DNA of 63,974 bases, filler included, from Collodictyon triciliatum (taxonomy: Eukaryota): the NCBI GenBank assembly GCA_043381765.1. It is 10 parts of 10 records of this genome, joined end to end, with 100 filler letters (N's around TTAATTAATTAA, not from the genome) between each part and the next. Parts side by side here need not be neighbours in the genome. Positions count along the whole stretch, not along the records: positions 19,659 to 26,084 come from JBHJMP010004469.1; 9 more parts are not named here. One strand, written 5' to 3'. Position numbers and translations under genes: made by a program. Below are positions 8,136 to 37,548 of the stretch, in pieces; the stretch's first letter is position 1, and every line of letters starts with the position of its first letter. The notes below the pieces were generated by a model that worked only from the letters and a program-made list of their open reading frames with translations, ran no database searches and was not told the DNA's origin.

Positions 8136-10674
8136 TTACTTCTTGATGAAGTAGACCTTTCCCTTTTGCGAGGCGCTACTGTCAAACGGAGCAGAGACCA
8201 GGATATTGCTCCCCTCAACATCGACATCAAAGCCATATGCATCAGAGCCGTCGGCAACTGGAGACTCCACATAGTAGTATTCGCTCCAATCATTTCCACT
8301 CTTTGTGAACAGATGCATGGAGCCTATGTGACAAAGACGAAGAAAAAAATTGAGCAGGTGTGCAAGATGAAATAAATGTGAAAAAATCAGTAGAAATAAT
8401 GTCACAAACCCTTGATGTTGCAAGCTTGTCCATTTGCGCAGGGCTTGGCTCCAACAGCAAGTCGGTTTCCGTCTGTAGAAAAGCTGAAGCTGAATCCAAA
8501 GTGCTTTCCAGCAACGACAGTATTTGGCTTGATTGTGGATGCAAACGCATATTGGCCATTGCCGTTCGGGGTGTATCTCAGAATCGACCCGGCGTTCGCG
8601 TCAGTGCTCCCGTCATTCACAGCCGAAACATAGAGGGCGTTTGCATTGAACTCAATAGCCCATCCGAATCCGAGCTTGTTGGCGTTAGTGATGGTCTGAG
8701 AGACTTCCCACTCTTCATACTTGAATTCATACACAAATACTGCTTGGTCAGAAACAGTCTCGGGATTGTTGGAGACCGCCAGTTTTGTAACGCTTCCAAG
8801 GGATACGGACTGGCCGAAGCGGTCATTCAGCTTTGGAGTTGGAGCCATGACGGTGACTCTCATGCCCCACTTGCCGTTGTCCTTCTTTTTGTAGATGTGC
8901 GCACATCCGGCGTTTGTAGCAGCTTCAGAGTGGTCGTACACAGGCATTCCGATGGCTACGATACTGTCGATGTTTGAGATGGACGAGCCAAGTTCGTAGT
9001 TCTTCGATGTCTTTCGATAGCGGATGATGGAATCCTTCACGAACTCATCTTGTCCAGCGTTCCATGTGTACAAAACCACAACACCGATATCAGCGTTGAT
9101 GTACTTTGATTTGGGCACAGAAACTATCAAATAGTGAGCGTTCAGCAGCATGTTGAACCCAAACAAGTTGTCTCTGTTGAGGAACGGATTCTTGATTTTG
9201 TTGTGAGCAACCCATAAGCCAGAAGTCGCGCTCATTTTGTATGTCAGAATGAAACCGCCGTTGCACTTCTCCGGGGTGTTGGGTCTTAGGCAGAACGGCA
9301 CTGAAATCACTGCGATGTCGTTATAAATCTCGACTTCGTATCCAAACATTTCTGATTTCTTCTTGTCGTACCAGTCCACGGAGTGGATGGCTGGAGACTT
9401 TGAACGGGATTTGGATTTAGACTTTGAACGAGACTTCGATTTAGACTTTGAGCGGGATTTGGATTTAGACTTTGAACGAGACTTCGATTTAGACTTTGAA
9501 CGGGACTTTGATTTAGACTTTGAACGGGACTTTGATTTGGATTTTGAGCGAGACTTCGATTTGGATGTTGTTGCTGCTGGTACGATTTCTGGTGGATTCC
9601 AAACTTTCACTGTTCTGTCATCGCCTCCAGCAGATACAATAATAGTACTATCGGGGCTAACAGCAACACCATCGATGTAGCCAGTATGACCTGTCAAAGT
9701 TCGGACCAGAGTTCCATCAGCAACATTCCACACTTTAATTGTAGTGTCAGAGCTCCCTGAGATTATCTTGGAACCATCGCCGTTGAAAGCTACACTCAGC
9801 GCATGGTTTGTGTGCCCTGTGAACGAGTAAATCTGTGTTCCGTCACCGAGGTTCCAATACCGAACACTCATGTCATAACTTGCAGAAGCGACTTTGGTAC
9901 CATCGCGCGATATCGCCACTCCACGAATACCACCAGAGTGACCAGTTAGGGTTCGAATCAGGGTTCCGTCAGAAAAGTTCCAAATCTTGATGACGTTGTC
10001 AGTATTTCCGGACACAATCTTCGTCCCATCAGGAGTTATAGCGAGACGCCAGATAGCGCTAGATGGACTATTAATTGTTCGAACCCAACTTCCGTCGGAA
10101 AGATTCCAGATTTTGATCGTCTGGTCGAAACTCCCTGATACTATCTTGGTGCCGTCTGGGGATATGGCAGCGGTATACACATAAGTGTCGTGGGCATTGA
10201 TGGTCTGAATCAACCCTCCAGTCGAAAAGTTCCAAATTCTAACAGTTTGGTCCGAGCTGCCTGCAGACACCACTTTGGTCCCGTCCGGAGTAACAGCAAC
10301 ACTGTAAGCACCAGCAGTGTGACCTGTCAGCGACCGAATCAGGGTTCCATCGGAAAGATTCCATATTTTAATAACTCCGTCTCCACCGCCCCCAGACAGT
10401 GCTTTAGTACCATCAGGAGTTATGGTAACATGCCTTGTGTAGTAGCTGGTATCGGCCATCGAGCGCACGAGGTAGGTTTGGCCCATGGTTTGGTACATTT
10501 CTGCGCATACTAAAAGGCCTATGTCAACACATTAGAGGATGAGCTCAAAAACGGCTTCTTTTATCTTGTTTTTTGGCTTAATAAACCTGACATATTATTG
10601 ATTGATCTATGGATTATAGCTGCACCTATCAGCACGAAGGCCGCCGTATTCGCTCGTGTAAGCAACCCAATCAT
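8136..10674 (-). CDS. Secreted protein: signal peptide, 7 WD40 repeats, (SKSKSRSK)n linker, FG-GAP repeat propeller; 3 exons
   Basis: Exon 1 MIGLLTRANTAAFVLI joins GLLVCAEMYQ across a phase-1 GT-AG intron. GH..WN repeats follow, then FG..V/L motifs (FGYEVEI, FGFNMLL, FGQSVSL, FGWAIEF, FGFSFSF). Last exon (about 8324-8136) is GSMHLF...YGFDVDV...LVSAP...GKVYFIKK*. Confidence 0.9.
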
Positions 10675-13031: not shown

Positions 13032-13145
13032 NNNNNNNNNNNNNNNNNNNNNNNNNNNNNNNNNNNNNNNNNNNNTTAATTAATTAANNNNNNNNNNNNN
13101 NNNNNNNNNNNNNNNNNNNNNNNNNNNNNNNTTTTTTTATATAAT

Positions 13146-13187
<42 letters not shown>

Positions 13188-13270
13188 GCGGCTCTTTGTT
13201 GTTCTAGTTTTTGGGGGGGGGGGGGGGGGGGGGGGGGGATTTTCATCTTTTTTTTTGTTTTTGTTTTCAC

Positions 13271-16200
13271 CTTTCCTATAGAAACTTGTATGCATTTATC
13301 GTCCGTTTTGTGGACTTCGGGGACATCAACACAAGGGGTCGATGTGGGATCATCTGATTTTGGCTCTGAATTGTGGGGTAATGAATCTCCAATCCTTGAA
13401 TCTTGATCTGAATCTGGGCCAACTGGATTCTCAGTAGCAAGAATATTCATGTCTTCTTCTAGTGTAGACGTATCAATGCTGACAGATCGAAAATCAGGTT
13501 TCGTAGGCAAGACCGAAATAACGTTGTTGGCAAGATTTCTCGTATCTCTCAACCTTGCTGTTAGGGAGAACATGTCTGTTGCGTTTGTGTCCAGTGTTTC
13601 CATATAATGAACTTGTTCCTCAACTGATAGTGATTGGTTCTTTTGAAAAAGAAAAAACAAGCGGGGGAGGGGAAGGGGAAATGGTATTATGATTCTTGAG
13701 CTTATTATCAAAAGAAAAATCACTGAATACTTTTAAATAAAACCAATCATGAAGAAAGTAGAATAAACTTTTATCGAGGAACATGGTATGAAGAAAGCCA
13801 AATTATCACAAGATAGGCTTTCGGTGGTGGGTCAAGGAGTCATCAAGACAGAAAAACTAAAGACTTACTTCAAATAGTAGCAAGCTCTCATGTAAACTCT
13901 TAATCGATCGCTGACATCCTTTTATTATTTCACTTACTGATTCCCAATCATTCTCATCCATAGATGAATCTTGTTGAGATTTCACTTTTTGTTTCAGTGA
14001 CTTAATTCTTTCTTCATCATTAAGGCTTCTAAATCAATTTACAGTGTATGTAATTATATATTCATTATCCCTCGTAAACTACAATGTCATTAACTAATTC
14101 ACCGATAATGGTTATAAATAATATCAATATATAATTGATATTAAGCACATATTGATATCGATAGATAAATAAATATATAAGCATTTAGTATGTAAAATCT
14201 TAAAATGATCAAATAAGATATCAAATGGCATGCAGGAGAGAGAGAGGAAAAAGGCAACATTAACAGATATACTGTAAATAAGATATTAAAAAAAAAAACT
14301 AACTGGTGTTTGGCTTGTAAGTTGTAAAAGGCCTTCAAATCGGCAAGGTCACGAGCACGCAAGGCTTCAGAGTCATCGGAATCACTTTCCTGTGAAGATT
14401 CGTAAATCACTTCCCAACCACCCACTCTCCCTCCAGAAGAAACATCGTCTTCTTCTTCTTCTTCCTCAAAATCATCCATCGCGTTATCTTCCATTTCCAG
14501 GGATGAAAGGGACTTGTTTTTGTCACCATCAAACTTTTCTCCGATGCCCGAAAAGGATCCCATGCTTGTGGTTCTTTTTCTAGATCTGCTTTCTCTCCTA
14601 GGCTGGTATTGACAAATGGAGAACATTTATGAGAAAATGTTTGAAGAGAAGGCTTCTTAAATGTTTTTTTTTTAAAAAAAAGCATATAGTTGTTTGTATG
14701 GAATTAATCATATATATACTCGAGAGGATGTGTCCCCGCCATTGAAATCCTGTGATGAAGAATTAATTTTGGTCCTAATAAAGAGGTTTTCAGGCATATA
14801 ATAAGATTGGTGCGTTTTTTTTTTTTGGATTTTTTTTTTGTTTTAGAAAAGAAGGATAGCAAAATGTGTTTTGAACATTCAACAAGAAACATCGGTTTTA
14901 TAAAAGCATTTGAATAAGATTGGTATTCTACTTAAGAACTTCAATTTCTCTCTTCAGTCGTTGGTAATCAGCGGTAAGGAGTGACCAAAGCTCACAGATA
15001 CGTGAATGGATGATCTCTAAAAGAATCCCCCGCTCAGAGCATGAATGGTAAACCTATAATTGCGTGTTTCTATTTCAATTTGCTATTATATATTCAGGGG
15101 TGGGCGTGGGCGTTATTCAGCATAAGGTTTTTTTTTTCTTTCCTTTACTTAATTCAAAACTTTAAAGCACAAGGTCCTTAGTCACATTCAAATTGTACAA
15201 CATACATGTCGGACGACCTCAGACATAATTAAGTCCCAAATTCTAAATTCTGGGAAAAGGAATGATTCCAAAACACCAGCAAATGTATGGGAATCTTTAT
15301 TTTCTGGACAGGAATCCCATAAACTGGATTGATTGTTTGTTTGTTTTTTTAAGTTATATTCATTTTCCATCAATTAACTATACTATGATATAATAATATT
15401 CAAAATAGAAAGAACTTTGAATAAAAATGAAGAGAATGAATATCTATAACACTAAGTAATACAAAAAACCAATCTATTGGGTGTGTTGCCTTGATAGCTT
15501 CTTCATTTGCTCTTTCTGAAATTCCCCTAAAATGACGTCAGCAGCGTGACAAAGATGAACAACTTCAGAGCGGGTGTTAGGAGAAGAGCTGGGGAAAAGG
15601 ACCGACTGCCAGACATGGTTTCTCCGGTCGTAAGTGACCTATCATGATAGAATATTATATATTCACAAATATCAGTTTTTTGATCAATCAAATATATAGA
15701 GATAACGTTATTAAAGAGTCACATATGATTTTGTCATTACAAAAATAAGGGAGACGAAGAAAAACCGAAGGCATCTATAAAATAACATTAAAGAACATAA
15801 ATGAATAAACCGACATCATCTGCCTGTGCTTCGTACACAACCGGTGTTGACTTATGTAAATGAAGTCTCTGTGGGATTCTTGACACGGGTGCGCCAATCT
15901 GATTTGCATTTCTATTTCAAGAAGATGACCGACATTTAGAAGAGAATGACAACGTGAAAGAGAAAAAGACAAAAAGAGAAAAGAAAAAGAAAAAGGAGAG
16001 AAGGAGAGAAGGAGAGAAGGAGAGAAGGAGAGAAGGAGAGAAGGAGAGAAGGAGAGAAGGAGAGAAGGAGAGAAGGAGAGAAGGAGAGAAGGAGAGAAGA
16101 AGAGAAAGAAAAAGGAGAGAAGAAGAGAAGGAGAGAAGAAGAGAAAGAAAAAGGAGAGAAGAAGAGAAAGAAAAAGGAGAAGAGAAGGAGAGAAGAGAGA

Positions 16201-16883
16201 GAAGAGAGAGAGAAGAGAGAGAAGAGAGAGAAGAGAGAGAGAAAGAGAGAAAGAGAGAGAAGAGAGAGAGAAGGAGAGAAAGAGAGAAAGAAAAAGGAGC
16301 TTCATTACGTTGTTACAAACGCCTCCAAGCCCGCTTGGAGCTTAGCCGGATCCTTCTTGCAATCGTCGATCCAGGAGACAGAGAGCCTGCGCTGCGCAGA
16401 CCCAAGCGAGGTAGGAATCCAAGCCAGATCCAAACGCGGCTGCCGCGGAACCCGAAAAGGCAGCTGTGTTTGCACGGGCACTTTGGCCTGACTTTTCTCA
16501 TGACCATGGCCGTGAGACTGAGACTGAGACTGAGACTGGGACTGAGACTGAGACTGAGACTGGGACTGAGACTGAGACTGAGACTGAGACTGAGACTGAG
16601 ACTGAGACTGAGACTGAGACTGAGACGGAGTCAGCGGTGCCGTGTGGGCGAGCGCCTGCAGAGTGCGCGGTGTGCGCGGGGCACGCGGAGTGACTCGCAC
16701 CGTTTGCTTCTCGGCCACGCTTCGCGCAAGAGGCGGACGTGGTGTCAGCGCGTGGGGCGATCGGCCCGAGCCCGAGGAGGGCAGCCCCGGCAGGTGCGGC
16801 AGGAGCGAGACGCCCTTGGAAAAGCCCACCCGCGGCATGGTGCTTGGCCGGCGGCTGCCTGCGTCTGCGATCCCCTGATCCAT
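13271..16883 (-). CDS. Axonemal dynein light chain domain protein (AXDND1/DNALI1-like) with an N-terminal (SQ)n tract; 3'-truncated
   Basis: Spliced exons give LFPSSSPNTRSEVVHL...IWDLIMSEVVRH|VYHSCSERGILLEIIHSR, matching the ELIRQV..C.ERG.LL signature of Ax_dynein_light. The model needs one GC-AG intron. Confidence 0.7.
15119..15175 (-). mobile_element. Decayed ultra-short retroposon copy in an intron
   Basis: T-tract plus TTTCCTTTACTTAATTCAAA (17/20 match to the family end), flanked by AGCATAAGGT and AGCACAAGGT. Confidence 0.5.
15957..16298. repeat. Intronic (GAGAAG/GGAGAA)n purine repeat
   Basis: Direct reading. Confidence 0.9.
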
Positions 16884-17160
16884 GGGCCCGGCTGCTTGTC
16901 TGCTTGTCTGCGCAGGGCGAGTGAGGTTGGGAACTGTGCGGCCCTGTGTTTGATTCTTGAGCGTGCGGTGTTGATTTTTAGCCCCTCTGATTCTTTTCTT
17001 TCGCACCCCCTTTTCCTTCCTTTTACTCTTAATCTTTTTATCTTTATTTTTTTAGTTATTCTATGTAAACGTAATTGACATTCGATCGCTGTGCACGAAA
17101 TTGGTTTCGTATTAAAAAGGGGGGACGGATGGGAATGGATCAACGCATGCGGGGTTTTAT

Positions 17161-19525
17161 TTAGTCATCTCCGTCGGGGGCTCCCTGGGGTGGGGCTTTT
17201 GGTCCGCCGGCTGGCTTGCTCATGATAATCTGGGCATGAATGCGCGGGGGTAAATATGTGTGTATGTGTGTGGCCTCTGGTCGATTCTGGGCTCACCTGG
17301 TTGACGCGAAGGATGGTGGTGGCCGCGTCTGTGGCAAGGCGCAGGGCAGACATCTTGATGGCCAGGTGGTCCATGATTCCAGCCTCCTGCGTAGAGACTG
17401 TGTCTCCGTCTCCCTGTGTATAATATTTCGATTGCTGAGAGGATGGTGGCATTCGATCTCATTTGATTTCATTCGATTCTTCTTCGTCGTATCCAGACAC
17501 CATGACAGGAAATGAGGTTGTGTCCCATACGTCAATGTTGACACCCTTGGCGGTTTCTCCTGCAGAGTGCGCGGCGTAAAGGCTGGAGATGACGTCGGTG
17601 GCGGTGAGGCCGGCGTTCTCAGCGAGGGTGCGGGGGACAACCTCGAAGGACTCGGCGTATTTGCGGATGGCGTACTGCTCCAGGCCGGGTGTGCTATCTG
17701 CAATCGACGAGAGGCGGCGAGCAATCTCGATTTCAAAGGCACCAGCACCAGGCACAAATGTTCCGTCGCGGGCGATTTGCTTCACCAGGTTGACTCCGTC
17801 GTCTGCGCAGGAAGGCATCAGCGATGGGTTTTGTGTTGGTGAAGATATCAAGTCATATGTGAGAAATAAAGTGCTATTCATTTCTATACCCGCGAAGTGG
17901 GTGGAGTGAAATAAAAGTAACACTTCCAGCGAGAGAAACGCTTACCAATTGCTCGTTCGACGTCATCCAGCAAATTCATTGTGCTACCACGTAAAACAAT
18001 TGTTGACACCTTTTTTTAATTTCATTCATTATGAGAAGAAAGTGACATTAGCAAATAAGGTTGTTGCAGGAACTGGTTGTGCGATGGATAGAATATCTTT
18101 TTTCTCAGTTTTTGATCTGGCTTGCAGACCTGACTATCCTCTTTCTCCTGTCTGAAGACGGTAACCTTCGTGCTTGCAATTTCACGGACAGATACTTCGT
18201 CACACTCTCCAACTTCTTCAGGTGTGGGTGCTCCCTATGGCGTGGAATGAATGATGATAAGGATAGCTGGTGGGTTTGACGAGCACGTCGTATTTACAAA
18301 CATGATAAGATTATCGGATTTGACTTTTACTTTTTAAATTAACTTTGCGGTATTTGGTTGAAATGGATAATAGTTACTTACTACTCGAACAAGGGGAATG
18401 GCACCGACGGTTTTGCAGATGCGTCGCAGATCGAATTTCGAGGGAACTTTGAGGACGAGGATTTTATTTCGCTCAAAGAAGTGCATTGCGAGGTCGCTGA
18501 TGGTAGAGCCACATACGACAACATTGACACCGGATTGACCAATACTGTTGATATTCTATGAAGGAGGATGTAAATAATGAAAGGTGGTTAATCATATAAT
18601 TCAAATGGTTGAAAACAGACTCAATTTTGGGTTCTATATTCATATATACATATATATACAATCTATGACATATATCGCAAAATTGTTGCTTTCGGAGCCA
18701 TACCCTCTCTAGAATTTGCTCTTCACCAATACTGTACTGCTCGAGTTCTTTCCCACTTTTGAGAAGAACAACTCCCTTTGTCTCTGTAGCTGCGATGTCA
18801 ATTTGGCAGGTGAAGACAGCAACTTTTGCGTTTGCGACACGTTTGATTGTTCCTAGCGATTATGATTTTGTTATGTCATAATAATCAAGTATGTACAAGC
18901 CATATACTTATTCATAAAATATTTAAGTAAATATGGAACAGGACGTCCTTTTGATAGAATAGTCACCTTCGACATCACGAAGAATTGCAAATCCCTTGAC
19001 AACATAGCTGTCACCCAGACCAGATCCAGGAATCTTAGCAACACGAACGTTGTCCACGTTGAAGTTTTTGACGTTCTTCGGCATGACTAGAAGGGCAGCC
19101 TAATGACGACGTCGGAGTTAAGGTTCATTTCAGGAATTTGTACCCAAAAGAAAAGAGAAAGTTAACATTTAAATGCTGTCATGTCAAACGAAACGTAAAT
19201 ATATATATATAAAAAAAGCTAGGTTGTCATAAATTAGATAGAAAAGCTTAATACATACCTCGGTCACCAAGCGGGCAAGAGTGTCCTCACGGCCGTAGAG
19301 TTTTGCTGCAAGTGCAGTTTTGATTCCTCTGCGAAGGGCAGCCTCATCACGGACAGACTCGATATTCTCGAAGCCAAGCTCAGGGGCAATCTTGAGGACT
19401 TGCTCCCAAGCCTTGTTATATCCAGCAATAATTTCACTGGGATGAAGGCCGGTCTTGAGAAGAGCTTCAGCTTGTTCAAGGAGCTCGCCAGCAAAGACCA
19501 CGACGAGATTGGTGGCATCACCCAT
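17161..19525 (-). CDS. CCT8: Chaperonin CCT subunit theta, 5'-truncated
   Basis: Spliced exons: MGDATNLVVVFAGELLEQAE, NFNVDNVRVAKI, KVPSKFDLRRICK, VPGAGAFEIE, GLEQYAIRKYAESFE, TILRVNQIIMSKPAGGPK. Confidence 0.96.
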
Positions 19526-19658
19526 CTGTATGAATGTGTACATTTGTCCATCATTTAANNNNNNNNNNNNNNNNNNNNNNNNNNNNNNNNNNNNNNNNNN
19601 NNTTAATTAATTAANNNNNNNNNNNNNNNNNNNNNNNNNNNNNNNNNNNNNNNNNNNN

Positions 19659-19803
19659 AAGGAGCAAGAGCCAAGGAACAAGAGCCAAGGAACAAGAGCC
19701 AAGGAACAAGAGCCAAGGAACAAGAGCCAAGGAACAAGAGCCAAGGAACAAGAGCCAAGAAACAAGAGCCAAGAAACAAGAGCCAAGGAGCAAGAGCCAA
19801 GGA
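19659..19803. repeat. 14-bp minisatellite (CCAAGGAACAAGAG)n
   Basis: About 10 tandem units at a contig start. Confidence 0.9.
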
Positions 19804-19948
19804 ATAGGGACAAATCAGACAAAGAAGATAGATGTCTCATTCATTCCACCATACTATAAAACTAAGTGACCTCGCATAGAGGCGGTCAAATGCTCGTATA
19901 TAAGAAAAGAGTATTCATTCACGTGTTAAGAGTGGTCAATTTTAAACC

Positions 19949-20210: not shown

Positions 20211-23200
20211 TTACGATATTTCGAGCATTTCCTTGTCAACCTGAGGTGGCTTTCCAAAAAAATTTCGGGCATAGCGCATAAGATGCCTACCTACAATAAA
20301 GTCATAGATTGGATCTAAAATAGACATTACTCTTTCAAGAACCATTCTAACCACCAAAGGTCCTGCTTTTGAGAGGAAAATAAGACCAATCGCCCCATTT
20401 AGAGAGACAACCAAAACGACCAACCCTAATTCGGCTGTCTGACTGAGATTTTCATAGCGAAATAGCAGGCTCAGCATTAATGTAAAGTAAAGGGTTACTA
20501 GTGATTGAATTTGAGATTTCTTTAAGACATTTGACATAAAAGGCTTAAAGTGAATGGTTGAGGCTATCATTAGAAACAAAAGCCACAAGCCAAAGTAAAT
20601 TTGTAATGATGCAGAAAAGAAAACGCCAATCAGCACAACGACAAGTTTCTGCATCATCATAAGAACCTCCCAGTATAAGCATTTCTCGGTGTATCCCTCT
20701 ACCAAAAATGAAAAGATTGAATAAATACTTGATGCTGGGTCTTGCAAAGTATTTCTCTCTATGACTATTTTGATAAAAATGAGTAAAGGTCCGCCGATGC
20801 AATAAAATATCAAAAAGACCAAGGATATATTTCTCCAAAACAGATATGTCTCATCGTCGCATGATATTGACATGTCTTCCTTGAGATAGCTTTCATCTCC
20901 AAGTGTTTCGCATACAAAAATGGAAGAAATAGTAGAGGTGATAGAGGGATGAATAAAGAACAAAACGACTAATATGGACCGGATAATTTCTTGTCGGATC
21001 CGGACATATGTGATATCACTTTTTGAAATCTCATTTGTGCGAACTAACCATATTTTTTTCAGGAAGAGTGCAAAGATCACCACACATATTAGGAAAAGTG
21101 GGGTCAAAATGGAAGAGAGGATTTTTTCATATACACTCATGTCGAATTCACATTCTAAGGGGTAGCTATCTACAGATAATGAAAAAGATAGCAAGGCCGG
21201 AACTTTCATCACTGATATCATATTCGCACCCCAATTTACATCAAAATTAGCCAAAGATGATAGGACCTGATAATGAGTTGATAGGGACTTAAGTATTTGA
21301 ATGTTCCCGGTCTTAGAATGCTCAGACTGCTCTATCATGAAAAAGACAAAAGCCAAAGGAACCAAAACGATTAAAACCACTAAAAAAGTATTCGTTCCCT
21401 TTGAACTACACTTCAAACAGAGGTTTCCAGCTTTTCCATAATCTTCTTCACAGGTACTGCACAACGCACCTTTGTAGCCTTCAGCACAAGTATTGTTTCC
21501 ACCAGTACATGCTTCTTTGTTAAAGCATTTGTAAGCGACATAATTGCCGTCTGTACTTGGAGCCTGCCAATATCCAGGGATGACATACAGTTGACTACTC
21601 CCGTCGCATATAAAGCCACTTGGACAGTTTTTGCATTTACGGTCTTTTAAATCAAAATATGTGAATGAGAAACATTTGCAATCTTCAACCGATTCTGATC
21701 CTGTTCGATTAGAGAATGAGTTTGTCGGGCATTTTTCACATAATGTCTGCCCATAGGACGGATTAAATGTACCCGGAGCACATTCATAGCATTGGTCACG
21801 ACTAAGGTAAAATCCAGGCTTACATTTGCATTCAGAGTTGGTCAAATTGAATCCACGCATACAAACACAATCCTTTTTTGTGGTCGACCCGTTGTTATGG
21901 GTAGTAAATTTGTCTCCACATGCAATGCAGAAATTGGTATCATAAGAAGATTTGTACGAGCCGTATGGACAAGGAGCACATTTTTGGTTGTCCTCAAAGC
22001 TTCCAGGTTTGCAGGTACATACTCCCTGAAAGGAAACATACGTATCAATACAAAGGCAGCTATTTATATCTACCGAGCCGATACTAGTTGTGTTTGCACG
22101 AGTTGGACACTTATTGCAAATTGGGCTCCTTTCGAGGCTATAGGTCCCAACAGGACATGGCAGGCAAAATGATATGTGTGAAGAGCCGGTATTGTTATTG
22201 AACGTTCCTGCTGGACAGGACACACAGTTTGTTCTATCTTGATTGGAATATGATCCTTTCGGGCATGTAATACAACTCATTATGCTAGTGGCACTGATGT
22301 CGATGTTGTAAGTGCCTGAAGGACATAAAGTGCAGGAAGTTTGCCCGTATTTATCATTATATTTTCCAGGAAAACAACGCTCACAAAGCGATGCACCTTT
22401 TGAATTCGAATAGAAACCCGGTAGACAAGGCACACAACTCGTGTTTGATGCAGCCGCAACTTCAAAATTAGCTGTCCCAGGTATGCAGCTTTCGCATGAA
22501 GTTTGTTCAGATTTAGTTGAATAGGTCCCAGGGGCACACGGTGTTGCAAAATGCTCACCTCTGTTACGAACGAAGTACCCAGGGCTACTTTGAATGCAAC
22601 TCGATTGCCCTTCAATTCCGCTGTAGGTGCCAGGCCCACACTCGATACAAGAAGTGTTAGAAATGGATCTGGTGATTTTGCTAAAAGTTCCTCTGGGACA
22701 CAGAGTGCAATACTCGGAGCCAAACTTATCACTGTAAGACCCCGGTGGGCACTGAATACATGAAGAGTACAGCATGGATGATCTTGTCATTGGGTTGTAC
22801 GTTCCGAGCAAGCATTTTCTGCAAAATGTCTGGCTTGGAAATGGATTGTATGTTCCAACACTACATATGGTGCAATTAGACTCACTAATTGAGCCCTTTG
22901 CATTATTGAAGGTCCCGAAGGGGCAGTCATAACATGAGTAGGCATCCATCGGATTATGGAAAGTTCCCTCCTTGCACACTTTACAAGAGGCTGAGAACCA
23001 ATCGAAATAATGGCCAACATCACACAGACCATACCAAATTCTGTTTTTTGAATGTTCTGCATAAACAATTCTCGGGCCGCTTAAAGAAACTGCAAGGCTC
23101 TTAATCTCTGCATTACCTGTTAGAGTTCGTAATAAACTCCCGTTAGTGATGTCCCATATTCTTACGCTGTAACCTTCGTCTCCTGTTATAATCTTGGAAC

Positions 23201-25835
23201 CATCTGGAGAAACCGCAACGCTCAAGGCCCTTGAAGGCATATCTATGGCAAGTATCGGTTCATCGCTATGAATGCTCCAAACTTTGGTTTCGCCGAAGTA
23301 ACTGATAGACACTATCCTAGAGTCATCAGGGGTTACTACAAGGCTGCTAATCCCATCATATGCATCTCTCCAAACATGTATCAAGGTGCCATTGTAAAAG
23401 TCCCACACTCTAATAGTTTGGTCATCACTACCGGACACAATATATAAGCCGTCATGTGTGGTGGCCACAACATTAACAGCATTTTCGTGACCACTCAATG
23501 TTCGTGTTAAATTTCCGTCTGAAATATTCCATATTCTTATTTTATCATCATAGTGTCCAGATATGATACTGAGACTATCAAGGGTGATGGTTATGCTGAT
23601 GGGGAAAAACCACGAACAATCTAGTATCTGAATCAAGGTGCCATCTGAAAGATTCCAAATTGCAATTGAAGGATCATAGCTGCCAGAAACAATTTTTGAA
23701 CCGTCTGGAGTAACAGCAACGGAAGTGACCCCATACGTATGATTTTTCAAAGTATGAATCAACGCGCCGTCATAAATGCTCCAAATTTTGATGGTGGCAT
23801 CATCACTTCCGGATACAATTTTTGAGTTATCGGGAGTTATTGCAACACAGGTAATGTATGAAGTGTGATCATTAGCAGAAAAAATAAACTGGGTATCTAA
23901 CATGGACCTAAATTTTATTTCAGAATACATGCTCCAGGATACAATTTTTGTCCCGTCCGGGCTAGCAGCAATATTTTTAACCTCATGATCGAATTCAGCA
24001 AAAGTTCGAATCAAAATCCCATCGTAGATATTCCAGATTTTTATTTCACCGTCAGCGCTCCCAGAAACGACCATGGAGCCACCAGCAGAAAGGGTGACAC
24101 TGCATACTTCAGAAGTATGCCCCACCAGAATTTTAATGAGTTCACCTGTTTGGAAATCCCATATTTTTACAGTTTGATCCTCACCTCCAGACACAATTCT
24201 CAATACATCGGGACTTACAACAAGGCTTCTTACGGAATCGGTATGGTTTAATACTTTCCTCGTTTCTTTTCCATCCCGAAGACTTTGAACAATAATCAAT
24301 TTATCTTTACTTCCAGACACAATTCTATGACCATCCGGTGTGACAAATAGGCACCATATTGTATCTGTATGACCTGTTAGCGTCTGATTTAGTTGTCCGT
24401 CTAGCAAATTCCATATTTTAATTGTGCCATCGATGCCTCCAGCCGCAACTATGGAACTATCAGGACTCACAGCAATTGTTTGTATATGATATTCATGATC
24501 CATCAACTCGTGAATAAGTGTTCCATCGGAATAATTCCAAGTAATGATATTGTCGAAGCTTGCGGAGACAATTTTGGAACTATCAGGAGTGAATATAACA
24601 ACATTTATTGTTGTTGTATGCCCTTTCAAAGTCAACTCCAGGGTGCCGTCGAAAACATTCCATAATTTGATGTCATTACGCTCGCTCTGAGTCATAAATT
24701 TTGAACCATTCGAGTCAACATGAACATAAATGACTCCATCTTCGTGGCTGCATATCGTACGAGATAACTTTCCATCATGTAAACCCCAAAACCGCATCGT
24801 ATTATCACTGCTGATTGATATTATTGTGGCATCATCAGGAGTGATGGCTATATCATAGACACTGTCTGTATGGTCTGTCAGTGTTTGTATCAATTGGCCA
24901 TCTGAAAGATTCCAAATTTTGATGGTTTTGTCCCAACTGCTTGACAAAAAAACAGAACTAGATGAAGCGATGAAAACACTTGTTACCACTGCAGCATGGT
25001 CAGTGAGCATCATAATTGCAGTCATTTTTGACAGGTCCCATATAATGATTGTGCAGTCTTCACTTCCTGACACAATTTTAAATCCATCAGAAGTAACAGC
25101 CACTTTGGTTACGCTGCCCGTATGGCCTAAGAGTTCGCCAATGAGCGCATCGTCAGAAAAACTCCAAACTCTTACCACGTTATCGAATCCTCCGGATATA
25201 ATTTTAGAACCGTCAGGGGTAATAGCGACGCTATAAACATCGACTGTAGATCTACTATACTTTCTAATCAAATTGCCATCATAAATATTCCATATCTGGA
25301 TAGAGTTTGATTTTTCACTAAATGAATCACCAGAGACAATTTTGAATCCATCAGCAGATATAGCGAGGGAATTAATTCTAGCAGAAAGAGATGGCAATGA
25401 GAAAATCATAGCACCGTCAGACATATTCCAAAGTTTAATCACTCCTTCCGAATCACCCGACACTAATTTAAAGCCATCAGGGGAGATAGCAACAGCAAAT
25501 ACACGATTAGTATGACCTGCCAGGGTACGAATCAAATTTCCGTCATAGGTGCCCCATATTTTGATCGAAGTGTCATCGCATGCGGCGATAACTTTGGTAC
25601 CATCAGGGGTGATTGCAACAGAGTTGAAATATTCCGTCTTTGTAATAGCGTATGATTGGGCCTCCTGTCCTCTAGATGTCCATATGACTGATAATGTGAC
25701 TATTTTAAAATTAAATGAAATTAAACACGATTGTAATTTTGAGCAATATTAGTGGAAAATTGGAAAAGTGTCTTATATTTTCCTACATATTATCGAGTGC
25801 ATACCAATCACAATTAATGAAAAAAGCAAGTGCAT
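20211..25835 (-). CDS. Large receptor-like membrane protein: signal peptide, about 20-21 WD40 repeats, many Cys-rich (GCC2/ephrin-receptor-like) repeats, about 9 TM helices
   Basis: The 1774-aa ORF extends upstream in frame to an acceptor near 25700. Exon 1 ATG at 25835 gives MHLLFSLIVI|VTLSVIWTSRGQ. C..C..GT[YF] repeats follow; the C-terminal domain has FSFLVEGY..CLYWE, resembling TRP-like (PF06011-type) membrane domains of protist Cys-rich receptors. Confidence 0.9.
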
Positions 25836-26184
25836 TTGGTTAAGTGGGTCCTACGTTGGAATTACAATTGTAAGCAACATATTTCTGATATAATATATTT
25901 CTCTTAATTTTTTGGCCAAAAAAAAGGTCGAAATCCTTCGAGCAATCTCATCTGGTTCATATTTGCTCATGATGTACAATTTCTACTCTTTCATTTATGC
26001 TGTTTAGATTGACATGATATTTTTGGTAAGATTGAAGCATGCAAAAAAAAAAGAAAAAAAGAAAAAAAGAAAAAAAGAAAAAAANNNNNNNNNNNNNNNN
26101 NNNNNNNNNNNNNNNNNNNNNNNNNNNNTTAATTAATTAANNNNNNNNNNNNNNNNNNNNNNNNNNNNNNNNNNNNNNNNNNNN

Positions 26185-26779: not shown

Positions 26780-27425
26780 TGTTAGATTGAAGATTCGCGA
26801 GGAAAATTTAATGTATTTTCCACATTAGATTAAGACGCCCTTTGTTTGTCAGGTTACCTTTTCCTGGGCTTTGCATTTTCAAGAAAAATGCGATCATTGC
26901 GGAAGGAGAACACAATCGCATGATCGGACCGCGTTCTTGGGCTTCCTCAATAATATGGTCGCCTCTTTCTTTATATTCTTATTTTCATTTCTCTTATTTT
27001 GTTTTTATTTTGTTCTTCTTTTGTTCTTCTTTTGTTCTTCTTTTGTTTTTCTTTTGTTTTTATATTCTTTTCATTTTTGTTTTTGTTTTTCTTATTTTTC
27101 TTATTTTTTCTTCTTTTTCTTCTTTTTCTTCTTTTTCTTCTTTTTCTTCTTTTTCTTCTTTTTCTTCTTTTTCTTCTTTTTCTTCTTTTTCTTCTTTTTC
27201 TCATTCCTCTCATTCCTCTTATTCCTCTTATTCCTCTTATTCTTCATGGCTCTTGAGATTGAAGCGCACTATTTTTTGTAATTTCATTCCGATTAGAAGA
27301 GAGAGTGGTAATTTACGTAATGCCCAAGCATTAAAATCATCTTTTTCAATTACTTCATAAGCTCTTTGCGGATCGACACGGTTAGTGACTCTATTTGAAG
27401 ACTTACAGTCCTTTGCATATCTTCC

Positions 27426-32168: not shown

Positions 32169-33019
32169 CCGCCTTTGGTGCGGATTCCAGAAGCGAAGGG
32201 CATTTCTCATCCTTTTTTTTTTCCTTCTCTTTTTCCTTTTTTTCCTTCTTTTTTTCTTTTTTTCTTTTTTTTCTTTTTTTCTTTTTTTCTTTTTTTCTTT
32301 TTTTCTTTTTTTAGACTTCCATGAAGTCTGCGGTTTGGCTGTCTGGCATTCGGTCAACTCTTGTTGTAGTTCACTGATGCGCTGCTACGCTGCTGCGCCG
32401 TCTGCTTATGGGCGCGCCTTATCACTCTTTTTTTTTCTTTCTGTTTTCTTGTTTGTTTTTTTGTTTGTTTTTTTGTTTTTTGTTTTTTGTTTTTTGTTTT
32501 TTGTTTTTTGTTTTTTTTTGTTTTTTGTTTTTTGTTTTTTGTTTTTTGTTTTTTGTTTTTTGTTTTTTGTTTTTTGTTTTTTGTTTTTTGTTTTTTGTTT
32601 TTTGTTNNNNNNNNNNNNNNNNNNNNNNNNNNNNNNNNNNNNNNNNNNNNTTAATTAATTAANNNNNNNNNNNNNNNNNNNNNNNNNNNNNNNNNNNNNN
32701 NNNNNNTTCTTTTTTTTTTTTTTTCTTTTTTTTCTTCTTTGGTTTTTTTTTTTTTTTTAGTTTTTTTTTATTCTATTCAAACATGCCTCATGTCATTGTC
32801 TTTGTTATAACAATGAATACTTGTGTTAGAGCCCATTCTAGGATAAAGAGCATAAAAATAAAAAAATTGATATTATATTATTCTATATAGTTAGAATAAT
32901 ATAATATCAAAAATAAAAAAAATATAAAATGGCTTTGATGTCTTAGCAGAAGGTGAAAAGGGGGTAGGGAAGCGCATGGCAAGAAGGTGGAACTTCTGGA
33001 ACGATGGAGACCTTACAAA

Positions 33020-35872
33020 TCAGCCAATTGCAGGGACAAGTGGCATCTTGATAACCGGTCGAACAGAACTTAAACATCGAATAGGGTCGTTGAAGTGCGC
33101 CGCGATTCTGCGCACTTGAATCATAGTCATATTGAACACACACGACCTCATCACCCCCTTGGAATCAAAGGACGCAAACAACAAGTCAATGTCACGATTA
33201 TTAAACGACTGCATCAGATTAGAATCTATGGCAATCCAAATAGCGAGTGAGTATACAACGGATAATATCATGTGGGCAAGCCTCCCATTGGAAAAGAACT
33301 TATTTAGGTGTATCTTTCCTGGCAATCTATCCAAGAAACCAACATTACGGTCGTATGAGATAAACGGACATGCGTCCATTCCCCCATCTCTCGCCCGGGC
33401 CCATTTCTCTGGTGGTGAGATGCTTTGGTCCAGCAATTTGCTTTTGATTATGCGTACAAGATTGTAGATACATACCAAAACCTGATAGTCGATATGCTTC
33501 TTTCTTTTAATTTTGTCAAGAATATCTAAAAGCTTGCCGTTGAACGAAGTGAATGAAAGTGGCTCTGCGTCTCCCAAAATCAAACGAAGACTCTGAATAT
33601 AAAGAGCAAGAATTCCTGGGAGGAGAAACCAAGAGCCAAAAAATGTGTAGTCAAATAAAAAGGCATAAAACACAGAGCTATTTACAATCGAGTACCAGTT
33701 CTCAAAGGAGTACATGCAATGAATAATTTCCGAAGAATTATAATGCAGCAGTTCGTATATAGAAGACATTAATCCAGCGACGTGTATAGAGCTGAATCCG
33801 TGACTCCAGAAGACCCCTCCTATTGTTTGCACGAGGAAGAGTATTCGTGATAAGAGCATGAAAAAACTAGCTATTCTATGACCTATCCTAGGCATTCTTA
33901 TAGGATTTCTTAATGCTTTTTTCATAATTGAAAGTAGCAAAGTTTCATCCTGAGAATTGAGTCTATTATCCTCTATAGGTGTCATAAGAAGGATTATTCT
34001 ACTGGGCGAATTACTCAGCCAAAGACCAGGAATAATGCTATGTGAATTCCTAAGCGAAGAAGATGTTGAGTTTCTTTCATATATAACACGCAAAGCGCTT
34101 GCGAAAGGGTAACGACCTTCAAACCTCTTATGGCTTTCTCTGTTATGGCTTTGTTGACTTGTACTTAAAGATGATGATTTGATTGATGTATAATCTCTAC
34201 TCGAACCGTGGTTTTTGTTTTTTTGTGTGGTGTTCGGTGTCTCACCATGCAGCTGATTTTCGATATCAGCATACTGATTTAACGCTATTTTGTCATATCT
34301 ATTTTGTTTGGCCTCTATTTTATCTATTTCATCCTGTGAAAACTGAATAATGTTCGTCAATCTTAAGCGTTCAGAATCATTAGGATTATCTTCTAAGCCT
34401 CTTCCTGCATATTGATTCTCTCTCCTCCCCTGTTCCTGGACATCCTCGCCACCACCAGGGGGTGATGGTGACCTTTGAACGACCTGCCTTTCGATTTCAC
34501 CAAATACGTCATCCCCCAAAAAATGTATCCACCCTTTGGTTAAAGGAATCTTCATGACCTGTCTTGTTATGCATTGTAGCTTTCCTGGTCTATGGGCGTA
34601 TGTGATTGCTTTTTTCCAACAAAAGGCGAGGATATTCAGAGTAGAGGCTCGGAAAAGTGCATCTAGACCTACACGGCTACTCATAACATGAATATACCGA
34701 ATTTCGTGTTTGCTTGGCAACGAACTTAACATGATGACATACAAATATGTGGACGCAGTAATTCCGAAGAATAGTGCTAATCTTGATTCTATACTCAGTA
34801 ATAGCAGTAATCGTATTCTCCTGAGTAATCGCTCCGCAAGGAATTTTGGAGCTTGGTACCAGCCCACCATTTTAAGATATGCTATCTTACACGAGTAGAA
34901 GGAGGATGACATAGTCCGAAACCGATCAAAGTCTCCGTCATTCAATGAAGATAGGGATTGCGATTCAGACATATACCTCTCCCGGGCAGGGGACGAGGAC
35001 ATAAAGAAGCGAGGCCGAAAATAGCTCATTCCACCCGAAGAGGACGATTTCTTAACTTTCGAGTGGTTTGTGCCGCTGCCTATTATATTACTCTGTTCTC
35101 CTTCAACCTCCCCGACTTCATTTTGCAGCTGGCTGAGGGTCATAGATGAGTGTCTTTGTGAGTTCGCCTTTCTGATAAAGGATATCAAGATAGATTGCGC
35201 ATAGGAAAAACTGACCGGCCATGCATCAAGGAAGATAAATGCAAAGTAATATACGATGAAAGATACGGAACCGGTTATTGTGTAAAATTCCCAGCCTAAT
35301 ATATCGGCACACGATAAAATCGAAACATTTATATTCAACAAGAGAAAGATGCTATCAAAATCTAACATGTTCATTGCAGCGATTTCGTATTGATATTGAG
35401 TGATACAGAGTATTGGATAGCTGAGTCCAAGGAATGACAGAAACAGATACGGTATATAGAGACTAGGTCTTCGATCCGTCACCATGTAAAGGGTAAGACA
35501 GAGGTGTGCTACCATGCAAAGTATAAAAAGAACCCCGAATTTTCGAAAGTAATATTTTGATATTAGATATGTAGCACTAGGAGACAATAGCACGCTTCCA
35601 ATTGTCTTTGAGGCATTAACGGGGTAATATATATCCGTGTCCGTGTAAAAAACCCAGCGGCCTTGGAAGAGATGAAGCATAGAATTGTCTGACCGTGATG
35701 ATTCTTGCCTTGCCACCGACTCTGCATAGACAGACTCATCTGTCTGGTGGATGCCTATGTGATGTCTGTTTAAATGAAGGTCATACTCATTGTCTGAGAC
35801 AGAGACAGATACAGAGACAGCATTTTCCTCGCTTCGAGTGCTAGCTCCGCGATCCATCGATCTTCCTGCCAT
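33020..35872 (-). CDS. Uncharacterised multi-pass membrane protein (950-aa single exon) built from two homologous halves
   Basis: Long uninterrupted ORF with two hydrophobic clusters separated by a polar linker. An acceptor-like TAG sits just before the ATG, so upstream exons are possible. Confidence 0.85.
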   Translation of the reverse strand: MAGRSMDRGASTRSEENAVSVSVSVSDNEYDLHLNRHHIGIHQTDESVYAESVARQESSRSDNSMLHLFQGRWVFYTDTDIYYPVNASKTIGSVLLSPSATYLISKYYFRKFGVLFILCMVAHLCLTLYMVTDRRPSLYIPYLFLSFLGLSYPILCITQYQYEIAAMNMLDFDSIFLLLNINVSILSCADILGWEFYTITGSVSFIVYYFAFIFLDAWPVSFSYAQSILISFIRKANSQRHSSMTLSQLQNEVGEVEGEQSNIIGSGTNHSKVKKSSSSGGMSYFRPRFFMSSSPARERYMSESQSLSSLNDGDFDRFRTMSSSFYSCKIAYLKMVGWYQAPKFLAERLLRRIRLLLLLSIESRLALFFGITASTYLYVIMLSSLPSKHEIRYIHVMSSRVGLDALFRASTLNILAFCWKKAITYAHRPGKLQCITRQVMKIPLTKGWIHFLGDDVFGEIERQVVQRSPSPPGGGEDVQEQGRRENQYAGRGLEDNPNDSERLRLTNIIQFSQDEIDKIEAKQNRYDKIALNQYADIENQLHGETPNTTQKNKNHGSSRDYTSIKSSSLSTSQQSHNRESHKRFEGRYPFASALRVIYERNSTSSSLRNSHSIIPGLWLSNSPSRIILLMTPIEDNRLNSQDETLLLSIMKKALRNPIRMPRIGHRIASFFMLLSRILFLVQTIGGVFWSHGFSSIHVAGLMSSIYELLHYNSSEIIHCMYSFENWYSIVNSSVFYAFLFDYTFFGSWFLLPGILALYIQSLRLILGDAEPLSFTSFNGKLLDILDKIKRKKHIDYQVLVCIYNLVRIIKSKLLDQSISPPEKWARARDGGMDACPFISYDRNVGFLDRLPGKIHLNKFFSNGRLAHMILSVVYSLAIWIAIDSNLMQSFNNRDIDLLFASFDSKGVMRSCVFNMTMIQVRRIAAHFNDPIRCLSSVRPVIKMPLVPAIG

Positions 35873-36059
35873 TCCTAATATAGAAGAGCGAAGAATAATG
35901 AAGACATCTGATGAGTTCTCTATTTTACTCTTTTCCTTTTCCTTTTCCTTTTCCTTTTCAACTTTTAATTTTATTTGTTTCTTTTCTGTTTGAACATTTG
36001 TCTCCTAGAAAAGATCACATCTTTGCTTTATAAAAATATAGTTCACGGCAAGAAAAATT

Positions 36060-36136
36060 AAAGGCGTCAAACAGATTTTTTTTTTCCCTTCATTCGATTC
36101 AAAGTGTAGCGAGGTTATGAAAGGCGTCAAACAGAT
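36060..36136 (-). mobile_element. 43-nt retroposon insertion with perfect 17-bp TSD
   Basis: AAAGGCGTCAAACAGAT at 36060-36076 and 36120-36136 flank T9-CCCTTCATTCGATTCAAAGTGTAGCGAGGTTATG. Confidence 0.92.
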
Positions 36137-37387
36137 AACATGTGCCACAGGGTTTAGACTTGAGAAACAGACGAAATTATGACCCAAAAGAAGGATAGTG
36201 AATCGAAGAGATAATAACAAAAATAATTGAAAAGATTCCTTCTATTTGCGAAATATTGGGGTCCCTCGGCTCGGTACGCTGGGATTCGATATTATAAGAA
36301 GAAAAATACAAGACAATCAAAAGAATGAAAATAATGAAAAATGAAGGGATTACACAAATAAAAGGAATTGAAATAACAAAAGACCAAAAGGCCAAAAGGC
36401 CAAAAGAAGAAAAAGAAGAAAAAGAAGAAAAAGAAGAAAAAGACCAAAAGAAAAGAAGAAAAGAAGAAAAGAAGAAAAAGACCAAAAGACCAAAAGAAAA
36501 GAAGAAAAAGAAGAAAAAGAAGAAAAAGAAGAAAAAGAAGAAAAAAACCAAAAGACCAAAAGAAAAGAAGAAAAGAAGAAAAGAAGAAAAGAAGAAAAGA
36601 AGAAAAAGACCAAAAGACCAAAAGACCAAAAGACCAAAAGACCAAAAGACCAAAAGGCCAAAAGAAAAGAAGGAAAAGAAGAAAAAGGATAATATCAACC
36701 GAAGTAAGAAAGTGGGGTGAAGTGCCATCCCATAGTCTAAACGCAAATGCGCGACCGAGATCGTCAGAGCCCCTGCCAGTCAGACAAGGGGTGATATCAG
36801 TTACGGGTGCGAGCATGCTCTGATCTCTGCTTCGCGGGTGGTGCATCACACTTTTGATGTTGCCAGTTGCGATTTACCAACAGGGTTATTCCGAGGGCAC
36901 CTTTGGCGCCAACAAGCGACAGACAGAAATTTCAAATTGGGACGTCTAAACAGAAAAAATGAATTTTTCATGTGCTTTGGATGATTTGAGCGAACCTTCA
37001 GCTTTCTGTTCATCAAACACTAATGGAGGAATCTTGGACCTTATGGTGGATTGACCGCAATAATAAGACTATTTATTAATTATCTGCGTACTATACAGAA
37101 TTAGGGAGGTATCATAGATTTTCATACACATGTTTATGATTCAATTCATAAATTCCACATATGAATACCAACTCACCTTCCTGGTTTTCCAACGAAGCAA
37201 GGAGACTCTCATAATTTTCAAAGCAGAGGACGATCGATCAGGCCATCGGCGCGTTGGTGGGGCGCGGCGTCGCGCAAAAATCAACCATGTGTAAAGCCAT
37301 CTCGTTTAATCATGAAGGAGTTGTGTTCCAGTTTTGTTGCTGTCTCTTTCAAAGAATTAAGAAAATACCGGTTTCTGTGCGTTCTTT

Positions 37388-37457: not shown

Positions 37458-37548
37458 CTTTTCCCCTGTATATTACGAGAGCTGTGCACCGTCGCCTGGT
37501 TCCACACGGCTATGTTTTTGTTTTCAATAATTGCAAACATATTGAAAC

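Follow-up and report, generated by a model that had tools for sequence, protein, structure and literature searches.

A candidate giant receptor of Collodictyon triciliatum with three WD40 propellers, probably exoplasmic, on a nine-helix membrane scaffold

Introduction

WD40 repeats form one of the commonest domains of eukaryotes. They are the textbook interaction platform of cytosol and nucleus, and the proteins that carry them are otherwise intracellular. A locus of the protist Collodictyon triciliatum (GenBank assembly GCA_043381765.1, record JBHJMP010004469.1) raises the question of whether such propellers can also be placed on the other side of a membrane. It lies at 20211..25835 on the minus strand of a stretch of 63,974 bases, denoted as the window in the following, in which about ten contigs or scaffolds, most of them of ~6.4 kb, are chained, so that the window is not one chromosomal stretch. 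A first reading, made from the sequence alone (the sequence-only reading), had proposed a WD40 array grafted onto a Cys-rich, TRP-like membrane scaffold as a recognition module outside the cell, for instance for prey or non-self. The analysis described here makes it probable that the locus is an intact protist gene for a giant modular CRMP-like/TRP-like receptor with nine membrane helices, the distal head of which would consist of three glycosylated WD40 propellers.

Gene model and signal peptide

The following features of the locus are proposed or predicted (all on the minus strand; aa, amino acids; nt, nucleotides):

25805..25835, minus strand: proposed exon 1 of 31 nt, which supplies the first half of the signal peptide (MHLLFSLIVI) plus 1 nt (read from the sequence, best donor)
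25700..25804, minus strand: proposed intron of 105 nt, GTATGC...AAAATAG, correct in phase
20211..25699, minus strand: exon 2 of 5489 nt, an uninterrupted frame that opens with the second half of the signal peptide and closes with the stop codon (20211..20213)
25668..25699, minus strand: second half of the signal peptide (hydropathy) with the likely cleavage site, between VTLSVIWTSRG and Q
23022..25652, minus strand: WD40 array, 21 units of ~42 aa (model residues ~27-903), read as three 7-bladed propellers (Pfam, repeat register, AlphaFold2)
23022..23897, minus strand: third propeller, a closed 7-bladed WD40 fold (sub-model residues 591-882)
21402..23018, minus strand: Cys-rich stalk of ~540 aa (residues ~905-1443), with 10-11 Ephrin_rec_like repeats, 58 Cys and 9 N-x-S/T sequons
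21408..21530, minus strand: DUF7630-like Cys module just before the first membrane helix (PF24633, E 1.2e-4, 22.6 bits, under the 27-bit cutoff)
20367..21401, minus strand: multi-helix membrane domain (AlphaFold2, family homology), modelled by AlphaFold2 with nine long helices at domain residues 54-80, 86-104, 143-174, 185-215, 237-267, 297-314, 317-338, 344-369 and 374-398
20214..20366, minus strand: C-terminal tail of 51 aa with 7 Lys/Arg (K/R), extending the last helix and predicted to be cytosolic

The long frame extends from stop to stop over 20211..25748 (minus strand, 1845 codons) in DNA of ~40% GC. Its first in-frame ATG is residue 109 and lies within a WD repeat, so the start exon must lie upstream. 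All combinations of ATG, GT donor and AG acceptor that keep the frame open were enumerated, and every one of the 32 models found needs splicing. Donors were scored with a small matrix derived from eight introns of a CCT chaperonin gene, which is located elsewhere in the window on a contig of its own. These introns have lengths of ~60-160 nt, begin with GTATGT, GTGACT, GTATGG, GTAAGT, GTCTGC, GTAAGC, GTATGG and GTGAGC, and end with TAG (four), CAG (three) or AAG (one). The GTATGC donor at 25804 scores 8.1 and every other donor at most 3.2, and all models that use it start with MHLLFSLIVI. An in-frame TAG precedes the corresponding ATG (25835) by 18 nt; the donor reads TTG followed by GTATGC, and the AT-rich acceptor at 25700 ends with TTTTAAAATAG. 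Donor, acceptor and length of this intron agree with those of the CCT gene.

The spliced model comprises 1839 aa and begins with MHLLFSLIVIVTLSVIWTSRG, which is followed by QEAQ past the predicted cleavage site. An uncharged core of 15 residues precedes small residues at positions -3 and -1 (S and G), and the Kyte-Doolittle hydropathy of the N-terminus reaches 2.01 in the best 19-residue and 3.08 in the best 11-residue window. Half of the hydrophobic core lies in exon 2, ahead of the first WD unit, which is hard to account for without a preceding exon like exon 1. The sequence-only reading had described a spliced signal peptide overlooked by the open reading frame track, and nearly all coding sequence in one exon of ~5.5 kb; start codon, donor and acceptor are all present in the right phase, and the length of exon 2 bears out the second statement.

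GC content at third codon positions (GC3) is even across the parts (0.35 in the WD region, 0.385 in the stalk, 0.396 in the membrane domain). Hence no compositional signal for a recent horizontal gain of the WD40 part is seen in GC3, a result that neither supports nor excludes such a gain.

The WD40 array

The WD40 family (PF00400) matches the array with E 2.5e-121 and 391.5 bits against a cutoff of 27 bits, in 13 stretches, and many further propeller-family models match as well. Tryptophan anchors with a period of 42 residues extend from residue 59 to 859 and define 20 full units which, together with an N-terminal partial one, give the 21 units of the array, in accordance with the ~20-21 repeats counted before. 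The best solved relative by sequence is a Nostoc WD40 protein (2ymu, E 2.9e-108). AlphaFold2 modelling of the 884-aa WD region (32-row alignment) yields an all-beta structure of ~80 strands with a mean predicted local distance difference test score (pLDDT) of 82.4; the predicted template modelling score (pTM) is 0.47, low as expected for beads on a string. A closed propeller fold with four-stranded blades is present in the model, and from the blade count the first 14 blades would make up two more propellers.

The mean pairwise identity between the repeats is 33.5%, there is no periodicity at a distance of seven units, and several units are devoid of the GH or WD signature. Such a low identity characterizes the array as old and diverged, not as a homogenised hypervariable one. 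Fungal HET-E/NWD sensor arrays consist of near-identical repeats with hypervariable positions, and the likeness to HET-E-type arrays suggested by the sequence-only reading fails on this point. Cyanobacterial, actinobacterial and fungal NLR-type WD40 arrays (2ymu, PkwA 5yzv, HET-E) are cytosolic, lack a signal peptide, a Cys stalk and a membrane domain, and belong to proteins with N-terminal NACHT, NB-ARC, kinase or caspase-like effector domains. The N-terminal NACHT/NB-ARC domain of the HET-E/NWD type has no counterpart in the receptor: its WD units start ~6 residues past the predicted cleavage site, which leaves no space for an N-terminal NTPase domain.

Cys-rich stalk, membrane domain, and family

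The stalk is of nearly the length (~550 aa) given in the sequence-only reading. Ephrin_rec_like (PF07699) is found in 11 stretches of it with E 5.4e-58 and 193 bits against a cutoff of 23.1 bits; matches to TNFR_ELAPOR1 and NCD3G overlap the stalk and reflect the same Cys pattern.

AlphaFold2 modelling of the C-terminal 449 aa, together with 28 relatives, reaches a pLDDT of 86.2 and a pTM of 0.82. The last of the nine long helices runs on into the tail, up to domain residue 435, and a Cys-flanked beta-hairpin is formed by domain residues 217-234. C217, C234 and W297 are invariant across the 29 sequences, and Cys137 is nearly so. Around nine transmembrane (TM) helices had been claimed for this domain; the model makes this count a reasonable one, whereas hydropathy alone yields six clear TM peaks. 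Among the Pfam matches of the C-terminal 449 aa no kinase family occurs, and a comparison of the membrane-domain model with solved TRP channels gave no match.

A phmmer/HMMER scan of the membrane domain against 1.84 billion representative proteins revealed 7510 relatives at E<=1e-3; of these, 2067 still pass a threshold of E<=1e-10, and 56 one of E<=1e-30. The matches cover query residues ~5-400 and mostly involve the C-termini of giant proteins. Named members are ciliate proteins annotated as 'transmembrane protein, putative' (Tetrahymena, Paramecium, Halteria), a Thecamonas 'TKL protein kinase', and hypothetical proteins of Aureococcus and Cymbomonas; the receptor protein itself was not found in the protein collections searched. 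Pfam annotation of the 12 top relatives showed IPT/TIG in 11, Ephrin_rec_like in 5, RCC1 in 4, FG-GAP, filamin and LRR in 2 each, and PQQ in 1. A propeller module (RCC1, FG-GAP or PQQ) is thus present in 7 of the 12, and WD40 in none. Further relatives carry beta-helix repeats of the Chlamydia-PMP type, Kelch or EF-hands. The membrane domain is a member of a very large protist family of modular receptors with swappable ectodomains.

The relation of this family to TRP proteins is more distant. PF06011, the Pfam 'TRP' family of the fungal Flc/Pkd2 type, matches 5 of 29 short relatives (best E 5.1e-8), DUF7630 matches 13 and Ephrin_rec_like 7 of them; relative P0300 reaches 25.6 bits with PF06011 (cutoff 28.5 bits). 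Neighbours in a protein-language-model atlas, at 0.94-0.95, include clusters auto-named 'TRP C-terminal domain-containing protein' and Ephrin_rec_like+TRP clusters, with PF06011 on 11-15% of their members. For the whole protein, the ESM Atlas returned only an Ephrin_rec_like cluster at 0.81, which is a lead at most. Sequence comparison of these relatives thus suggests a distant tie to PF06011, and the term 'TRP-like' used in the sequence-only reading is appropriate in a narrow sense, for some relatives and atlas neighbours; it is not borne out by the receptor's own Pfam matches or by the solved channels.

Topology and glycosylation

On which side of the membrane does the WD40 array reside? From residue 717 to the first membrane helix at residue 1448 no hydrophobic segment rises above the threshold, the weak hydropathy peaks inside the WD region correspond to beta-strand stretches only, and the stalk has neither a signal peptide of its own nor an internal start. 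Since no membrane segment separates the two parts and the stalk has no own signal, both must share one compartment. Arrays of the Ephrin_rec_like/TNFR-like type are disulfide-bonded extracellular modules. Sharing a compartment with a disulfide-rich stalk of 58 Cys, the WD40 array should thus be exoplasmic. The same position in the relatives is occupied by classical extracellular modules, and a strongly hydrophobic N-terminus is found in 55 of 136 long family members, as opposed to 11 of 91 WD40-only homologues.

The membrane domain points in the same direction. Cys137, Cys217 and Cys234 are borne by acidic, K/R-poor loops and, as two helices lie between Cys137 and Cys217, all three are on the same side. 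The opposite side displays K/R clusters at helix ends (LKKIWLVR, YVRIRQEIIR, KPF..KK) in addition to the basic residues of the tail. If the Cys loops are outside and the helix at domain residues 86-104 spans the membrane, parity demands that the chain begins outside, crosses the membrane nine times and ends inside. The pattern of loop charge and Cys fits this arrangement.

Sequons (N-x-S/T) occur 23 times in the protein, 12 of them in the WD region, where shuffles of the same composition give 6.8 +/- 2.2. Their density per 100 aa is 1.36 in the WD region, 1.70 in the stalk and 0.50 in the membrane domain; the WD40 homologues show a median of 0.26 and a 95th percentile of 0.63. The motifs WNMSDG, WNLSDG (twice), WNYSDG and WNISDG named in the sequence-only reading are all present, and sequons are enriched in one propeller loop: W-N-x-S/T is found in 5 of 16 loops detected by regular expression, compared with 22 of 1151 (1.9%) in the 97 nearest WD40 homologues, i.e. 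16-fold more commonly than in homologous arrays. From the general structure of WD40 domains, the W-N-x-S-D-G loop would join strands C and D at the bottom rim and leave the top faces of the propellers free. The predicted signal peptide, the uninterrupted link to the stalk, the loop pattern and the sequons all agree with an array outside the cytosol, as had been proposed.

WD40 on the receptor scaffold and comparison with known systems

Is the combination of WD40 with this scaffold unusual? The three parts of the protein were compared locally (phmmer) with 303 proteins, of which 97 matched the WD part only, 87 the TM part only, 78 the Cys and TM parts, 23 the Cys part only and 18 none; WD40 combined with the Cys or TM part was found in 0 of the 303. 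The 97 nearest WD40 homologues are all WD40-only proteins in this sense, many with NACHT/NB-ARC or kinase domains. Of 165 membrane-domain proteins, none was detected by a single-repeat hidden Markov model built from the window's own repeats, even at E<=10. A word-index search with residues 700-1500, which covered word-sharing proteins with lengths of 1014-3229 aa, retrieved the WD40 or the Cys part, never both, among the 120 matches listed of 543. A metagenome scan with the WD40-stalk junction yielded four loci (L001-L004), all of which match on the WD40 side only. With interchangeable N-terminal modules in the relatives and WD40 in 0 of 165, 'grafted onto' is a fair description of the array.

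Counterparts with other propellers are sister proteins with the same scaffold, a membrane domain 28-34% identical to that of the receptor, a Cys stalk and a distal beta-propeller. The propeller is RCC1 in P0010, P0012, P0018 and P0019, FG-GAP in P0013 and P0030, PQQ in P0028 and Kelch in P0159; none has PF00400-type WD40. A Tetrahymena malaccensis protein of 3126 aa (P0293) shares the membrane domain (E 1.4e-37, profile search), and its ectodomain (~690-960) gives weak WD40-like Pfam matches (E 8e-10 to 5e-5) that are far below the cutoffs and do not include PF00400. This protein may be a distant precedent for extracellular WD40-like blades in ciliates. P0293 also shows a signal-peptide-like start, and its WD40-like blades are followed by a stretch that looks like PMP/beta-helix.

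A second WD40 gene (P0005) is situated at 8136-10674 (minus strand) on a separate contig (6603-13031). It encodes seven regular WD40 units; identity is 47% among these units and 38% between them and those of the receptor gene. A W-N-[LF]-S-[DT]-G sequon occupies 4 of 5 loops found by regular expression. After the WD40 part follow a (SKSKSR)n linker and an FG-GAP_2-type propeller (E 6.3e-10), which shows weak similarity (E 7e-5) to the ectodomain of P0030, a member of the receptor family; a membrane segment is lacking. The last exon follows a GTTTGT...TAG intron. An unspliced start without signal peptide is possible (ATG 10498), and a spliced start at 10674 (MIGLLTRANTAAFVLIGAAIIHRS...) is signal-peptide-like. 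P0005 may belong to the same lineage-specific type of WD40 protein, in a secreted form.

Among described systems, the cysteine repeat modular proteins (CRMPs) of Apicomplexa and ciliates (TgCRMPa/b, PfCRMP1-4, TtCRMP1/2) come close. According to the excerpts of the two sources, they possess a signal peptide, a variable adhesive N-terminal part, Cys-rich EGF/Ephrin-receptor-like/furin modules and nine TM helices; the N-terminus of TgCRMPa was shown to be extracellular and its C-terminus cytosolic (PMC9670195, PMC9815656). The same excerpts list MAR, Kringle, C-lectin, EGF and parallel beta-helix modules, with no WD40 described, and report that CRMPs are required for rhoptry or mucocyst discharge, for which a path from contact sensing to exocytosis was proposed (PMC9670195, PMC9815656). 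The core of these proteins (Ephrin_rec_like stalk, nine helices, N-terminus out and C-terminus in) recurs in the receptor at the level of architecture only. The overall layout is also common to the PF06011 family (Schizosaccharomyces pombe Pkd2, Saccharomyces cerevisiae Flc1-3): S. pombe Pkd2p consists, in the part of the source consulted, of an extracellular domain behind a signal peptide and of a TRP-like membrane domain with a cytoplasmic tail (PMC6727746). The ectodomain of the fungal proteins is a small ML-like lipid-binding domain, in contrast to the 1400-aa propeller/Cys array of the receptor.

A layout analogue, not a homologue, is the plant receptor kinase CRINKLY4 (ACR4/CR4). As given in the excerpt of the preprint, its ectodomain combines a 7-bladed propeller, called 'WD40' by the authors, with a TNFR-like Cys-rich domain next to the membrane; the propeller is the functional part, is stapled by disulfides, and has the secreted bacterial BLIP-II as its nearest structure (bioRxiv 10.1101/2020.08.10.245050). 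CRINKLY4 has a single TM helix and a cytoplasmic kinase, whereas the receptor has nine helices and no Pfam match to a kinase.

The open-access literature searched describes no canonical extracellular eukaryotic GH-WD protein. Nothing was found there that joins any two of TRP C-terminal domain, ephrin receptor-like repeats and WD40, or that deals with DUF7630, and searches of it for WD40 with signal peptide, extracellular, beta-propeller and ciliate, or for Ephrin_rec_like/GCC2_GCC3, returned nothing relevant. As far as these searches reach, canonical WD40 on a nine-helix receptor scaffold is undescribed. The scaffold, which resembles the published CRMPs, and its habit of swapping propellers (RCC1, FG-GAP, PQQ, Kelch) are already known from relatives, and only the WD40 ectodomain is new.

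Sequence context of the window

The pieces of the window are separated by nine identical artificial spacers:

6503-6602, 13032-13131, 19559-19658, 26085-26184, 32607-32706, 39229-39328, 45748-45847, 52263-52362 and 62372-62471: N44-TTAATTAATTAA-N44, with a stop in all six frames

Because of these spacers, genes on adjoining pieces belong to the same record only and their adjacency is without meaning. Contig spacers separate the receptor gene from the CCT gene and from the second WD40 gene, and synteny between these genes was therefore rejected. The receptor gene fills its own contig (19659..26084, 6426 bases), which is bounded by simple repeats, namely a tandem repeat of ~24 nt on the low side and (GAAAAAAA)n on the high side; most other pieces end in simple repeats as well. 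Low-complexity or microsatellite-like DNA at 15903-17078 (both strands), 19659-19840, 26040-26084 and 26840-27360 gives rise to long spurious frames in several reading frames (repeat types ERRREGEK, SQ/RL, FSS, and the two terminal repeats just named). Such repeats are probably the reason why the assembly breaks into small contigs.

The CCT/TCP-1 chaperonin gene (17150-19543, minus strand; contig 13132-19558) is cut by the contig end and has at least eight short GT-AG introns. One sampled exon stretch of it has ~61% GC, well over the 40% of the receptor gene, which indicates either strong compositional heterogeneity or contigs of more than one organism in the record. A frame of 994 codons (P0306; 33020-36004, minus strand; contig 32707-39228) has no Pfam match at E<=0.001 and, judged by several hydrophobic stretches, may encode a multi-pass membrane protein. 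In the frame at 53011-53988 (plus strand), two lipoyl domains (Biotin_lipoyl E 2.5e-43) and one E3-binding domain (E3_binding E 3.5e-15) mark the N-terminal part of a 2-oxoacid dehydrogenase E2 subunit. No tRNA or Rfam matches were obtained in the window.

Alternative explanations

Several observations weigh against the receptor proposed here. Exon 1 and expression of the gene are predictions from DNA sequence alone; the splice-site matrix stems from a contig with an exon GC of ~61%, compared with 40% at the receptor locus, and possibly from a different organism, and further 5' exons may lie past the contig end. The count of nine passes needs the polar helix at domain residues 86-104, which hydropathy does not flag, and one blade of the array (sub-model residues 556-598) is modelled at low confidence. 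The excess of sequons over the composition control amounts to only ~2.3 standard deviations. Regarding the family, the receptor's own DUF7630 match stays below the cutoff (22.6 vs 27 bits), the receptor has no PF06011 match at E<=1, and the likeness to the named CRMPs is one of architecture, based on published descriptions. Neither the word-index nor the metagenome searches found an orthologue with the same WD40-stalk junction.

The most serious rival accepts the exoplasmic array and disputes the sensor. The protein would reside in an internal compartment (endoplasmic reticulum (ER), Golgi, or an extrusome or secretory-organelle membrane) or be part of a structural or adhesive surface coat; its propellers would scaffold lumenal or matrix partners, and the nine-helix domain would act as a transporter or channel, like fungal Flc. 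We regard this as rather unlikely, although it can draw on several relatives: those tied to PF06011 include, as far as the source excerpts go, fungal calcium and flavin regulators of the ER or internal membranes, the CRMPs are in the excerpts cited above mostly located in the secretory pathway and only briefly at the surface (PMC9670195, PMC9815656), and the ectodomains of the family are mainly adhesion-type modules (TIG, filamin, FG-GAP). A very large, glycan-rich, modular ectodomain is, however, more typical of surface receptors and adhesins, and the sequence, which fits cell surface and secretory lumen equally well, offers nothing to tell the two apart.

If instead the 5' model were wrong, there would be no cleavable signal peptide and the WD40 array would be cytosolic, as part of an unrecognised topology or of one of two genes or transcripts. 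Only 249 nt of contig precede the ATG of the predicted exon 1, and both the habit of WD40 proteins elsewhere and the 97 WD40-only homologues would suit a cytosolic array. Still, no stop, no ATG with signal peptide and no hydrophobic segment parts the array from the stalk, which would then have no ER route of its own; a cytosolic Ephrin_rec_like array of 58 Cys contradicts what is known of this domain, and all 32 models are spliced, with the sole strong donor yielding a hydrophobic N-terminus. This explanation is therefore improbable, and slightly more so is a recent non-functional fusion, a pseudogene, or an assembly chimera of a WD40 gene with a receptor gene. Contigs of only ~6.4 kb with simple repeats at their ends reflect a highly fragmented assembly, the junction is without an orthologue in the searches described, and several repeats have lost the GH or WD signature, all of which speaks for this explanation. 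A stop-free frame of 5.5 kb is not expected in decaying AT-rich DNA, though; GC3 is uniform across the parts, the repeats are old yet fold as propellers with high confidence, and it is improbable that a chimera would be in frame and also come with a matching signal-peptide exon.

Proposed mode of action and implications

For the proposed receptor the following course of events appears most likely. The signal peptide, encoded by the 31-nt exon 1 and the start of the 5.5-kb exon 2, would direct the chain into the ER. The three 7-bladed propellers and the Ephrin_rec_like stalk would become exoplasmic, at the cell surface or in a secretory lumen, and would probably be N-glycosylated, above all in the recurring W-N-x-S-D-G loop, with the nine-helix C-terminal domain as the anchor (N-terminus out, C-terminus in). 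The faces of the propellers may bind a macromolecular ligand or a surface, and binding could be relayed via the rigid stalk to the nine-helix domain, which might function as a channel or signalling module, comparable to Ca2+ entry by Pkd2 or to exocytosis triggered by CRMPs.

Going further, the lineage may have moved the canonical GH-WD40 propeller into exoplasmic space in more than one protein, namely the receptor and the probably secreted WD40-FG-GAP protein P0005, and may couple contact with prey, mates or surfaces to Ca2+ entry or exocytosis; this wider proposal is a tentative one, and we hold it with more doubt than belief. If true, a family of canonical WD40 domains outside the cell would be documented for the first time in a eukaryote. 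A canonical, well-folding triple WD40 array in exoplasmic space would demonstrate that the fold tolerates the secretory pathway and glycosylation, and annotation pipelines should not equate WD40 with an intracellular location when topology is predicted. The receptor would also provide a natural test case for how nine-helix, distantly TRP-like domains without a solved structure read the binding of their ectodomains, and it would contribute a new recognition module to a poorly studied group, the giant modular receptors of protists, to which the CRMP invasion sensors of Toxoplasma and Plasmodium belong.

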